Assembly (NCBI GenBank): GCA_047605615.1
Contig: JASGFI010000001.1
Location: 486-64,485, forward strand
Source of the DNA: Edaphocola sp.
GTDB taxonomy: Bacteria; Bacteroidota; Bacteroidia; Chitinophagales; Chitinophagaceae
Direction: 5' to 3'
DNA: 64,000 nucleotides
Shown here one piece after another: positions 3,198 to 20,403 of this stretch (positions within the stretch are counted from its first letter, which is position 1; every line of letters starts with the position of its first letter). The notes beneath the pieces were generated by a model. That model saw nothing but the letters and a program-made list of their open reading frames with translations. It was not told where the DNA came from and ran no database searches. The position numbers and the translations under genes are program-made.

Positions 3198-4721
<1,524 letters not shown>

Positions 4722-16393: not shown

Positions 16394-17728
16394 CTATCGT
16401 TTTTTCTTTGCGCCCCTTGTCTTGGGCTTGCCGTATTTGTCCATCATTTTTTGCTTGTGGCCCACCTTTTGGTTGGTCTTCATGTTCTTGGCTTTCTTTT
16501 GGTGGAAGGCCGGGCCTGCGTTTTCAAACTTTGGTTGCTTGATGGCCACTTCTTTGTGAAACACCTTGGGTTGCTCGTCTTCGGTTAGCTCGGCAGATAT
16601 GGCCACTTCGTCGGGAAAAGGAACCATGGGCAATTGCCGGGCCATCAACTGCTCTATGGACAATACGGCGGCCCGGTCGGCGGGCAACACGAAACTTATG
16701 GCCTCGCCCGGCCGGTCGGCCCGGCCGGTGCGCCCTATGCGGTGTATGTAGTTTTCGGGCACTTCGGGCAGGTCGAAATTTATTACATGGCTCACGGAGG
16801 CAATGTCTATGCCGCGCGCCACTATGTCGGTAGCGATTATGAACCTGTAAGTGCCTTCTTTGAACAACTTTACCGTTTCAAAACGTTTGTTCTGCTCTTT
16901 GTTGGAATGGATGACCCCCACCCGGTCGGGATAATGTGCGGCCATCCGTTCGTACAGCTGGTCGGCCAGGTGCTTGGTGGCCGTGAATACCAATACCCTG
17001 TCCATGTCGGTTCGGGTATCCAACAAATGCCGCATCAGGTTTACCTTGGTGCAAAAGTTGGGCACGGGGTAGGCCAATTGCTGTATTTGCGCCACGGGCG
17101 TGCCTGCCGGTGCGGCTTCTATGCGTATGGGGTCCCTGAAATATGTGTCCATCAATTGCTCCACGTCGCCGCCGAGGGTGGCGGAAAACATCAGGTTCTG
17201 GCGGCGTTCCGGCAACAAGTCCAGTATGTTGCGCAATTGCGTACGGAAACCGAGGTCCAGCATTTCGTCCACTTCGTCTATGACCAGTTTTTTGACGGAC
17301 TTGGTCTTGAGCGAACCGTTCAGCACCAAATCGTACAGCCTGCCCGGCGTGGCCACCAATACGTCCAAGCCGTTCAGCATGGCCTCGGCCTGCGGCTTCA
17401 TGTTTACGCCGCCGTACACGCCCACTATTTCCAGGCTCCTGTAAGCCGACAGTTGCCTGGCCGCGGCCACTACCTGCTGCACCAGTTCGCGGGTGGGCAC
17501 CAGTACCAGCATTTGCGGGAAACGGTCTTTTGAAAATTCTATTTGGCGCAGGCAGGGCAACAGGTAGGCAAAAGTTTTGCCGGTGCCCGTTTGGGCTATG
17601 CCGCACACGTCCCTGCCCGACATTATGGGCGCGAACGCTTGTTGCTGGATGGTGGTGGGCGTGTGCAGGCCCATTTCGTCCAAAGCCTTGAGCAATGGGC
17701 CGGTAAGGTTGAGGTCTGAAAATTTCAT
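16394..17728 (-). CDS. DEAD-box RNA helicase
   Basis: AQTGTGKT, PTREL, DEVD, SAT, ARGID, HRIGRTGR; start taken at MKFSDLNL. Confidence 0.97.
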   Translation of the reverse strand: MKFSDLNLTGPLLKALDEMGLHTPTTIQQQAFAPIMSGRDVCGIAQTGTGKTFAYLLPCLRQIEFSKDRFPQMLVLVPTRELVQQVVAAARQLSAYRSLEIVGVYGGVNMKPQAEAMLNGLDVLVATPGRLYDLVLNGSLKTKSVKKLVIDEVDEMLDLGFRTQLRNILDLLPERRQNLMFSATLGGDVEQLMDTYFRDPIRIEAAPAGTPVAQIQQLAYPVPNFCTKVNLMRHLLDTRTDMDRVLVFTATKHLADQLYERMAAHYPDRVGVIHSNKEQNKRFETVKLFKEGTYRFIIATDIVARGIDIASVSHVINFDLPEVPENYIHRIGRTGRADRPGEAISFVLPADRAAVLSIEQLMARQLPMVPFPDEVAISAELTEDEQPKVFHKEVAIKQPKFENAGPAFHQKKAKNMKTNQKVGHKQKMMDKYGKPKTRGAKKKR

Positions 17729-17985
17729 AACATGGATGCCGCAAAGATACGAAGGCCAATCCGGAATAGGGAACGGGCAAATGGCCGGGGGCAATTTGCA
17801 GCAGGCAAAAGGGGCCATCAACGGTGGCCATTCGGCAATGGGCAAAAAGCCGCACCGCACGTCGCGAACCTCTTTTTTGTGCCTGCCGTGCCTTGCGCCG
17901 GGTGAAAACGGCATTGCATCATCAAGTAACTTTTTGTACATTTACCCCACGAAAATATAGGTATAACCCAATTAAATTTGAAACA

Positions 17986-18477
17986 ATGGCCATTACGAAC
18001 CTCAACAACCTGCACCTTACGGACGAACAGCTGGAGGTGGCGCAAAATGCCCTCGAGGAGTTGGAAAACGCCCTCGCCGCCATCAACGTAAACCTCACGG
18101 CAGACGACCGCCGCAGGTATGGCAGCATCAACGAGCAAAACAAATTGTTCGTGAACAAAGTGAACGACTACTTCGCCAACCAGCCCGCCCTCAGCTCGCC
18201 CGAGGTGGACTGGGCGGAATTTGCCGCCGACTATGCCAGCCGCAAAAGCTACGAAGCCATCATAGCAAGGCTCGACAGCCTGAGCCAAACGCTGGCCAAT
18301 GCCAAAATACTGCACGATTACGACAATTACCAGTCGGCCCTTACCGACTACGCCTACACCGCCTACAAGGCAGGCACATCCGCACCGGGCTACGAAACCA
18401 AGTATGACGAGTTGAAGCAGTTCTTTGCCAGATCCTCTTCCACGGGCGGCACGGACACGGGCGGCACAACCGGGTAA
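17986..18477 (+). CDS. Conserved hypothetical all-helical protein (163 aa)
   Basis: MAITNLNNL...VNLTADDRRRYGSINEQNKLFV...LHDYDNYQSAL...YDELKQFF; resembles a Bacteroidota hypothetical family recalled from memory; strong host-like codon bias. Confidence 0.85.
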   Translation: MAITNLNNLHLTDEQLEVAQNALEELENALAAINVNLTADDRRRYGSINEQNKLFVNKVNDYFANQPALSSPEVDWAEFAADYASRKSYEAIIARLDSLSQTLANAKILHDYDNYQSALTDYAYTAYKAGTSAPGYETKYDELKQFFARSSSTGGTDTGGTTG

Positions 18478-18490
18478 GCCCCCCCCGTTG

Positions 18491-18742
18491 GGGCTGCCGG
18501 CCCATCCGCACACGTTGCGAAATGGTACGGATATGTAAGGCACCCCTCCCGATGCGTTGCCGGCCCCCCCGTTGGGGTTGCGCAACGTATATTTTGGGGT
18601 TCGGGACGCCAAATTTTGGGTTCCGAACCCCAACGGGGGTACAGGACACCCCAACGGAACAGTTTGCAACCGCAACGAAGCCTTGCAGGACGTATCGGGA
18701 TGGGTTCGGAACGTGTGGGGAACGTTGCGGAACGCGGGAACA
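18491..18742. repeat. Degenerate 21-nt tandem array (12 units)
   Basis: Shared blocks recur only at multiples of 21 nt: offsets 21, 63, 84, 84, 105 and 210. Confidence 0.8.
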
Positions 18743-18894
18743 CGGGACTTGGACGATATTTGGGCACAAACATTTTTTCTTCGGGCAGCATTAAACCTAT
18801 CGCCCCCCGCCGGGGCAAAAAAACCCACGAAGCCCTCCGGCGTGCAGCATACTTGCGCTATCTTTGCCGCTTAACCCAAAAAAACAGGAATAAT

Positions 18895-20403
18895 TTGCGT
18901 TTTTTACTCATCCTGATGCTTTGCAGCGGCATAGGCGCACGGGCGGCGGCGCAGCAGGTACCGGCACCCAAGAGAGAGCTGAGGGCGGTATGGATAGCCA
19001 CCGTGGGCAATATAGACTGGCCCAGCAAACAGGGCCTTTCGGCACAGCAGCAACAACAGGAATTCATAAACCACCTCAACTACCTGCAAAGCCACGGCTT
19101 CAACGCCGCGATAGTGCAGGTAAGGCCCGCCGCCGATGCCCTTTACCCCTCGCCCTACGAACCCTGGAGCCGCTACCTGAGCGGCAAGCAGGGCCAGCCA
19201 CCGTTCCCCAAATACGACCCCTTGGAATTTATGGTGCGCGAGTGCCACAGGCGCAACATGGAACTGCACGCTTGGTTCAACCCCTACCGGGCTTTGGTGG
19301 CCAGCAATGCCAATCCCAATCCTGCCGACCATGCCACCAAAGTGCATCCCGAATGGATAATACACTACGGCGGCAAAAGCTACTTCGACCCCGGCAACCC
19401 CGAAGCGCGCGAATACATACTGAAGGTAATACTGGACGTGGTGGAGCGTTACGACATAGACGCGGTGCATATAGACGACTATTTCTACCCCTATCCCGTG
19501 GCGGGCAAGCCCTTCCCCGATGCGGCCACCTATAAAAAATATGCCACGGGGCAGGCCTTGGACGATTGGCGCCGCGACAATGTGAACATGTTCGTATCGC
19601 AATTGAACGCCAACATCAAGCACAAAAAAAACTGGGTAAAATTTGGCGTAAGCCCCTTCGGTATATGGCGCAACAGCAACAAAGACCCCGAAGGCTCGGC
19701 CACGCGCGGCGCCAGTTGCTACGATGATTTGTACAGCGACGTGCGCCTGTGGATAGACAAAAAATGGCTGGACTACGTGGCACCCCAATTGTACTGGGAA
19801 CGTGGCCACAGGGTGGCCGCCTACGACATATTGCTTCCCTGGTGGAAAGAACACAGCGGCAACCGCCAGCTTTACATAGGCTTGGGCGTTTACCGCATGG
19901 TGGACGCAAAAGGCCTGCCCTGGAACAATGCGCAGGAACTGCTGCAAGAAATAGACGATGCCCGGAAGCTGGACGTGGACGGCTTGGTGTTTTACAGCAT
20001 GAGCAGTTTTTACAAAATAGGCAACGAACTGGGCGACAAACTGCAACAGCAATATTTCGGCACCATAGCCATACCCCCCGCCACACCTTGGCCCGGCCAT
20101 GCCAAGCCCACGCCCCCCAAACTGATGATAGGGGCAAAAAACAACAGCAACTGGCTTATCTGGAACCATGAAAACGCCCCCCAACCCCCGCAGGAAAAAT
20201 ATTTGGTGTATAGATTTGAAGGGAACGAAAAGATAAACCTTGACGATGCCACCAAAATACTGGCCCTGACCCAAGAGCAAAAGTTTTCGGACAATGAAAC
20301 AGTGGCGGGCAAGCATTACAGGTATGCAGTAACGGCAGTGGACAGGTTGTGGAACGAGAGCGACATGAGCAATGTAGTAGAAGCAGGTACGCCCGAAAAT
20401 TAA
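18895..20403 (+). CDS. Glycoside hydrolase-like family 10 (DUF187, YngK/YddW-type) with C-terminal Fn3-like domain
   Basis: [57 protein letters not shown]; the 595-aa track ORF is over-extended into the repeat array. Confidence 0.9.

Follow-up and report, generated by a model that had tools for sequence, protein, structure and literature searches.

A Bacteroidota-wide family of small helical proteins encoded beside a helically phased array of 21-bp palindromic units

The 163-aa protein encoded at 17986–18477 of the window (the whole stretch of DNA analysed here, 64 kb) founds a so far unannotated family of small helical proteins that occurs throughout the Bacteroidota, and on comparative grounds its gene and the array of 21-bp units directly behind it are one inherited module. 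The protein itself is most likely a new DNA-binding protein that would assemble on its own array. With moderate confidence, we propose a cooperative assembly of protein dimers on one face of duplex DNA, with one dimer per palindromic unit. The protein would be a sequence-specific, two-fold symmetric binder of double-stranded DNA, and each palindromic 21-bp unit would hold one dimer. As the units recur every 21.14 bp, which corresponds to two helical turns, about 12 dimers (7–24 in relatives) would align on the same face of the DNA and assemble cooperatively into a single higher-order nucleoprotein complex beside the gene, leaving approximately 24 disordered C-terminal tails free to recruit a partner. 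Three elements of this model, the identity of the binder, its dimeric state and the formation of a filament, we infer from the comparisons described below.

The locus and the protein family

The first-pass annotation had described a 163-aa ORF whose stop at 18477 is followed by a C8 tract, with an array beginning 13 nt further downstream. The sequence agrees with this description, a single G preceding the C8, and the array is real; its start at 18491 in that description and at 18487 here (Table 1) differ by 4 nt through the choice of register. Pfam matches and inspection of the window ORFs likewise agreed with the placement of gene and array, which have a divergent DEAD-box helicase gene on one side and a GHL10 gene on the other, with no transposase or integrase ORF between the two. 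The spacer of the window runs directly into the first GTTGGGG half-site, and the terminator survey found no T-run terminator in it (18478–18486), whereas most relatives have an intrinsic terminator at this place. All six reading frames are open across the array (17818–18874), since the units are G+C-rich and stop-poor, and the resulting spurious ORFs of 90–336 aa could mislead gene callers, for example into an N-terminal extension of the GHL10 ORF from 18616.

Table 1. Coordinates of features in the window and in related loci, with the palindromes of divergent family members
Feature	Locus	Position	Strand or placement	Basis or remark
DEAD/Helicase_C gene	window	16394-17734	minus; upstream, divergent	E = 5e-49
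ORF, 163 aa	window	17986-18477	+	intact translation, TAA stop at 18475-18477
Spacer, G + C8 (C8 = 18479-18486)	window	18478-18486	+	from stop codon to first array unit
Array, 12 units	window	18487-18739	.	autocorrelation, repeats, position-weight chain
GHL10 gene	window	18892-20403	downstream of array	E = 1e-78
XRE/HTH_3 gene	L001	2476-2859	same orientation as family gene
XRE/HTH_3 gene	L006	2601-3155	same orientation as family gene
XRE/HTH_3 gene	L009	3611-3979	same orientation as family gene
XRE/HTH_3 gene	L015	3598-3978	same orientation as family gene
RF02914 hairpin	L053	3944-3978	20-25 nt before start codon of family gene	Flavobacterium-type locus
RF02914 hairpin	L037	645-679	20-25 nt before start codon of family gene	Flavobacterium-type locus
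Further RF02914 match	L053	711-745	same strand
Further RF02914 match	L053	1849-1884	same strand	about 20 nt before upstream ORF start at 1905
Second, orphan array	L021	6971-7222	about 2.3-2.5 kb past the gene's own array	minus-strand ORFs between
Gene duplicate, truncated	L078	1078-1479		820-aa ORF between duplicate and complete gene
Complete gene with array	L078	3992-4483
Palindrome ACCC-TATA-GGGT	L082			2.1-2.2-Mb genome
Palindrome ACGTGT..ACACGT	L085			at least 20 units
Palindrome TTAGCTA	L087
Palindrome ACCTA..TAGGT	L093
Palindrome GGTT..AACC	L089

Across 18478–18770, the autocorrelation reached 0.46, 0.39 and 0.43 at lags 21, 42 and 126, respectively, and, lag 1 aside, stayed at or below 0.36 at every lag that is not a multiple of 21. 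A position-weight chain resolved 12 units, all steps being 21 bp except for a single one of 22 bp; it was the sole such chain in the 64 kb when both strands were scanned, and direct as well as inverted repeats were spaced by 21, 42, 84, 105 and 147 nt within the array. In degenerate form, the periodicity may continue as far as about 18760. Owing to the degeneracy of the units, Tandem Repeats Finder saw a two-copy fragment only. The unit consensus, Gga.ggGTt.gg.ACccc..c, follows, with degeneracy, the palindromic pattern (G)GGT-N5-ACC(C) and has junctions of the (c)GGA/TCC type.

Several simple accounts of such an array could be rejected. It is not a coding heptad repeat, given that no frame is conserved on either strand and that stop codons occur in the units of AT-rich relatives. 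An array of Bacteroidota promoter boxes (TTTG / TAnnTTTG) would need a spacing of 27–29 nt, which on inspection misfits the 21-nt period, and a G-quadruplex or telomere-like TTGGGG repeat is at odds with G-runs that lie 17 nt apart and with other subfamilies that have no G-runs. Single cognate sites elsewhere in the 64 kb were at chance level and not in excess, which speaks against a global regulator with scattered sites, and no cognate site was found in the 200 nt upstream of the window gene, which speaks against an autoregulatory operator at the promoter. An origin or terminus marker was also dismissed, as there is no GC-skew turn at the window locus and the positions of the module vary among complete genomes.

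The protein family comprises 1102 clusters at 90% identity (E ≤ 0.001), or 756 representatives at 50% identity, and nearly all members are single-domain proteins of about 160 aa. The window protein shares 55–66% identity with members from Flavobacteriia, Chitinophagia and Bacteroidia. As stated in the first-pass annotation, these are unannotated Bacteroidota proteins: all the named homologues are called ‘hypothetical’ or carry plainly spurious names. The motifs given there are all conserved: NLTxxxR..YGSINEQNKL, LHDYDNY and LKQFF correspond to invariant or nearly invariant columns in alignments of 19 and 85 homologues. Conservation is concentrated in the blocks NLTxEDRxRYGSINEQNKLFVNKV, AKxLHDYDNYQxAL and LKQFF, which are followed by a disordered, low-complexity C-terminal tail; near-invariant residues are R42, Y45-G46-S47, N49-E50, N52-K53-L54 and N57-K58 in the N-terminal part, and K107, L109-H110-D111, D113-N114-Y115-Q116 and K144-Q145-F146-F147 in the rest of the protein. 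The family is acidic, with a pI of 4.5 for the window protein and of 4.5–6.1 among its members.

An AlphaFold2 monomer model built from 85 sequences was all-helical and confident (pLDDT 88.1), with helices at residues 13–33, 39–45, 50–65, 76–130 (55 residues) and 136–146 and a disordered tail at 151–163. Three Foldseek searches with two AF2 models returned no neighbour in the PDB or BFVD, the family matched nothing in Pfam, NCBIfam, PHROGs or PADLOC, and no PDB sequence was matched even with profiles. Indeed, the domain, PDB-sequence and Foldseek searches revealed no recognisable DNA-binding domain or fold, the domain searches no recognised catalytic motif, and no entry in the family or structure databases linked the protein to a known, unrelated function. 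Full-text searches of the literature found no description of either the array or the protein. A role as a defence system was rejected on the basis of the missing PADLOC match.

Linkage of gene and array and variation of the motif

To follow the module across the phylum, 80 homologous loci were fetched from named Bacteroidota genomes (L001–L080). An array lay directly downstream of the gene in about 74 of the 80, mostly with 7–24 units. Of the 79 loci whose downstream sequence was long enough, 75 had their best downstream autocorrelation at 21, 42 or 43 nt, and an iteratively built unit model, applied as a position-weight chain, found arrays of at least five units in 74 loci; the 72 arrays with at least six units had a median of 11 and a range of 6–27. 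Within the 8-kb loci such chains were nearly confined to the DNA directly behind the gene, and in every locus gene and array were co-oriented, with the array always downstream. Homologues with little or no array were rare, namely L015 and L084, which have none, and L009, which has a remnant.

The flanking genes, on the other hand, were unrelated between loci, falling into 179 clusters among 248 neighbour proteins, while the 145 downstream proteins belonged to 106 Pfam families; no gene family was common to more than 10 of the 248 neighbours. When close species were compared by blastn, homology ran from about 75–150 nt before the ATG to the end of the array, with variable DNA beyond, so that the conserved unit consists of promoter and 5′UTR, gene, in most cases a terminator, and array, together about 0.85–1 kb long. 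In five out of five genomes with two copies, an array was present behind each copy. The proposal of a two-component gene-plus-array system, made from the window sequence alone, was thus supported across the sampled loci, where the flanks differ among homologues, the array stays and each paralogue carries its own.

Some loci showed additional features. In L021, an orphan second array lies past the gene's own (Table 1); an insertion may have divided what was once a single array. A gene for an XRE/HTH_3 regulator (about 125 aa, with a coiled-coil tail) precedes the family gene by 22–53 nt in four loci; in two of these, L009 and L015, the array is degenerate or missing. The Rfam DUF805b cis-regulatory hairpin (RF02914) was found just upstream of the gene in two loci, at 33–34 bits and hence just below the gathering score of 35.6. 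Lastly, in one locus labelled as an Acinetobacter pittii MAG (L012), the gene shares 96% nucleotide identity with its counterpart in Niabella defluvii (L014), and the array 91%; this contig is almost certainly mis-binned Bacteroidota DNA.

In the main family the unit reads (T)TTGGGGT-N5-ACCCCAA(A), with T8 at 0.96, A14 at 0.89 and a centre of about 0 bits, and about 3–5 positions per unit are fully variable. Clade-specific variants were found, such as TTTGGGGT..CCTCAA in one Kaistella clade, TTTAGGT..CCTAA in the sister of that clade and GGA...GT..AC..TCC in a large Chryseobacterium clade and in the window. Which variant is present depends on the clade of the protein and on the individual paralogue rather than on the genome that hosts it: Kaistella-type paralogues residing in one genome have GGGGT/CCTC and TAGGT/CCTA, respectively, and another genome shows this pairing again. 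That the motif changes with the adjacent paralogue and not with the host is the main argument that the protein reads the array, and this clade- and paralogue-linked variation supports, as comparative evidence, a direct recognition of the array by the protein. Part of the concerted change within an array could reflect duplication of units, not selection by a binder.

Among nine divergent members (27–37% identity) with enough downstream sequence, most retained an array with a 21–22-bp period, and several of these arrays were built from different palindromes (Table 1). The array of L091 is short, with five units, L092 and L094 show weak periodicity only, and L084 is the arrayless member named above. 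In the large Chryseobacterium clade we also observed a 42-bp super-period (e.g. L051:3917–4297, L016, L025 and L028), in which ACGT-type and GGT-type elements occupy successive units and GGA/TCC junctions replace AAATTT.

Several points count against a protein that binds the array, among them its acidity, the lack of a known DNA-binding fold, the lack of a promoter site and of excess single sites in the 64 kb, the lack of a conserved nearby partner and the few homologues without an array. The first two of these would fit an alternative in which the array is cis-acting DNA that the protein does not touch, either because it offers sites to some other host factor or because it forms a bent or insulating stretch acting on the gene or the local chromosome. 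The alternation of AT-rich and G/C-rich blocks every ~10.5 bp, a classic signature of bendability, and the L021 orphan array without an adjacent gene are in line with this idea as well. Yet a generic factor or curvature fails to explain why motifs differ between paralogous modules of the same genome and follow the protein clade. In addition, unrelated palindromes occur at the same period in distant subfamilies, and the only gene that constantly adjoins the array in the neighbour survey is that of this family. We therefore regard an array untouched by the protein as unlikely.

Acting form of the array and inheritance of the module

The first-pass annotation had suggested that the protein binds or processes the DNA or RNA of the array. 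The evidence favours double-stranded DNA over RNA as the acting form, so that the DNA half of this suggestion was retained while binding or processing of RNA was not favoured. Over 72 arrays the mean period was 21.14 ± 0.13 bp, or 10.57 bp per turn, with 546 steps of 21, 108 of 22 and 10 of 20 bp (symmetric penalties); such a non-integer period fits the helical repeat of DNA. The position-weight matrix of the unit correlated with its own reverse complement at r = 0.94, compared to at most 0.50 for column shuffles.

An array acting as RNA, produced by read-through or from its own promoter, would instead be bound by the protein, sequester it or be processed by it, comparable to type III toxin–antitoxin systems or CsrB-type sponges. 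Reverse-complement symmetry has no reason to exist in an unpaired RNA motif, and neither hairpin register showed a consistent excess of pairing. Within units, there was no excess over within-array shuffles except for one outer pair, and across the linker a few pairs did better than the shuffles (z 3–4) while positions 16/6 did worse (z = -6.4). An RNA hairpin array was rejected, since within-array shuffles overall pair as well or better in both registers. Symmetry without consistent covariation is as predicted for a two-fold symmetric protein on duplex DNA. Moreover, the sequence of the array has changed at roughly the pace of third codon positions, and the number of units differs between genes that are 96–97% identical; selection acts on the phased half-sites only and not on a unique RNA sequence.

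Evidence from transcription pointed in both directions. The consistent co-orientation of gene and array and the strong intrinsic terminator between them, seen in 52 of 72 loci, recall ToxIN with its order reversed, but a terminator follows the array in only 12 of the 72. Four isolate RNA-seq runs identical to the locus of Chryseobacterium sp. Leaf404 (L051) covered the gene well, the 5′UTR and the first 65–105 codons being at depths of 16–129 and the remaining gene at 2–7, and in three of them the depth over the array was 0. In wastewater RNA-type libraries, contigs covered the array of a Cloacibacterium locus (L003) at a depth at least equal to that of the gene, and one contig spanned the terminator; these depths, however, are unstranded, are summed over strains and may include DNA, and at least two of the runs (X9 and X10) resemble genome assemblies. 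Rfam gave no match over 17500–19200 of the window at E ≤ 1, nor over the arrays of seven loci at E ≤ 0.1. Taken together, we consider it very unlikely that the array acts as RNA.

At the Leaf404 locus, RNA-seq contigs (L051:3182–3649; gene at 3332–3820) covered a 135–150-nt 5′UTR and the 5′ part of the gene, and a Bacteroidota-type promoter, TTTG-N21-TATGTTTC, lies just before the contig start. This 5′ signal could come from a stable 5′ fragment, from attenuation inside the coding sequence or from a highly expressed partial duplicate elsewhere.

The protein tree agrees with taxonomy, family labels requiring five changes compared to a minimum of four, which indicates that the module is old and mostly vertically inherited and is inconsistent with rampant horizontal transfer. 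Genomes hold one or two copies, and Weeksellaceae hold several paralogous lineages of the module. No tblastn match to the family was obtained in 72,556 plasmid or 50,697 phage records; given this absence and the lack of a PHROGs match, a plasmid iteron, a plasmid centromere and a phage pac site were rejected.

The DNA past the arrays of L001–L080 is variable and often carries defence or mobile genes, for example AbiLi/AAA_21, MADS mad2, type II methyltransferases, HpaII and EcoRV nucleases, GmrSD, ParE and IS200-type transposases, and the array end may border an insertion hotspot. In L078 (Ancylomarina longa), the complete gene is accompanied by a truncated second copy, a 133-aa ORF whose homology spans approximately the first 126–128 aa and which is near-identical by inspection.

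A selfish or recombination-related element, whose array would be the end or target for insertions or rearrangements and would be marked by the protein, appears highly improbable to us: even though homology between close species stops exactly at the array end, IS200-type transposases, restriction–modification, Abi and toxin–antitoxin genes seem commoner downstream than expected (judged by general knowledge of gene content only), the second L021 array lies ~2.3 kb past the first, perhaps split by insertion, and L078 has its truncated duplicate, this idea is countered by the mostly vertical descent, the low copy number, the absence from plasmid and phage collections, the lack of a recognised catalytic motif and the lack of a recombinase, terminal inverted repeat or array unit upstream of the gene.

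Significance and comparison with known systems

If dimers of this protein do assemble on the array, our preferred guess for the role of the complex is a chromosomal landmark or a centromere-like complex whose partner is not encoded nearby. Indeed, neither the 248 neighbour proteins nor the 145 downstream proteins included a conserved NTPase or other partner gene. A broader version of the model, which we put forward tentatively and hold to be doubtful, is a so far unrecognised, Bacteroidota-wide chromosomal nucleoprotein system in which a new DNA-binding fold with evolvable palindrome specificity polymerises on a phased array beside its own gene. It would form a single cellular landmark that might resemble a centromere, act as an organising centre or, by way of the clustered disordered tails, bring in an unlinked partner, and paralogues would be orthogonal to each other in specificity.

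Irrespective of the mechanism, a family of more than 1000 clusters without relatives in Pfam, NCBIfam or among known structures is linked to an unusually regular non-coding DNA feature with a period of 21.14 bp, and this association is as old as the separation of the Bacteroidota classes. If the predicted binding is true, the family would represent a new DNA-binding fold with naturally diversified specificity (at least five palindrome types) that could serve as orthogonal operator–repressor pairs, and it would bring to light a nucleoprotein complex on the chromosomes of a phylum in which little is known about how chromosomes are organised. The experimental entry would be cheap, requiring one protein and one DNA of ~250 bp.

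Several known systems combine a protein gene with repeated DNA. REPtrons consist of a HUH/Y1 transposase gene with REP palindromes on its flanks, further copies of which are scattered over the genome; here, the protein had no Y1_Tnp match, and in the 64 kb the motif chain occurred once, with single sites at chance level. CRISPR, TIGR and VIPR arrays have periods of 60–79, 18 and 5 nt, respectively, and a survey of periodic intergenic arrays found bands at these values and a few others, none of which matches 21.14 bp (bioRxiv 10.64898/2026.10.21.760802). Like those systems, the module links a periodic non-coding array to one protein family, but its array has no guide-length spacers, its period is different and DNA is favoured over RNA as its acting form. 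No significant Pfam or PADLOC match of the family indicated a Cas, Tas (Nop-domain) or Vipr effector, and there was no conserved neighbour that could supply one.

Type III toxin–antitoxin systems (ToxIN, CptIN and TenpIN) have an array of 36–40 nt repeats upstream of the gene, a processed RNA and an endoribonuclease toxin. They share with the present module the combination of a single protein gene and a tandem repeat array with an intrinsic terminator in between. The array described here, in contrast, is symmetric, helically phased and not detectably transcribed in three of four runs of one isolate, and it was always found downstream and without an RNA structure signal, never as a ToxIN-like transcribed upstream array. 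Neither Pfam nor PADLOC matched the protein to a ToxN/AbiQ-type endoribonuclease, and its model is all-helical.

The closest parallels come from plasmid partition. In the type II systems ParR-parC of R1 and pSK41, small dimers bind phased tandem repeats of 10–11 bp or 20 bp and form a solenoid-like segrosome. The module would share with them a small protein that, as we infer, acts cooperatively on helically phased repeats beside its gene and has a disordered tail for a partner. ParR, however, is a ribbon-helix-helix protein, the upstream parC also serves as the promoter, ParM is the partner and the system is plasmid-borne, none of which was found here.

The nearest analogue is SopB-sopC of the F plasmid, where sopC is located immediately downstream of sopB. 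The sopC site consists of 12 direct 43-bp repeats with a 16-bp inverted repeat in each (PMC3177203). In both cases a gene is followed by about 12 tandem units, each of which is a palindromic site for one dimer (a predicted site in the present case), and the protein and its array are passed on together as cognate partners. SopB belongs to the ParB family with its HTH, has a ParA partner, is encoded on a plasmid and uses a 43-bp unit, whereas the module described here has a protein of a new family and fold, no nearby NTPase gene, a chromosomal location and a 21.14-bp unit.

With regard to the traits of partition systems more generally, the candidate binder gene adjoins a tandem array of its own predicted sites, as judged comparatively from adjacency and clade-specific motifs. 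No gene family recurred in more than 10 of the 248 neighbours, and the 25 commonest downstream Pfam families included no partition NTPase (ParA, ParM or TubZ), although an unlinked partner may exist. Searches of Pfam, NCBIfam, the PDB and Foldseek showed no ParB HTH/CTPase, ribbon-helix-helix or winged-helix fold, with the qualification that a monomer model would miss an RHH-like N-terminal strand that forms only in the dimer. The occurrence in plasmids or prophages that is expected of plasmid partition types, ParG-parH and TubR-tubC included, was not seen in the plasmid or phage records. Since there is no NTPase nearby, the fold is another and the module is not plasmid-borne, we liken it to a centromere-binding protein and its array without filing it as one. 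By analogy, it is nonetheless such a protein, working together with the array beside its gene, that the module appears to resemble most closely.
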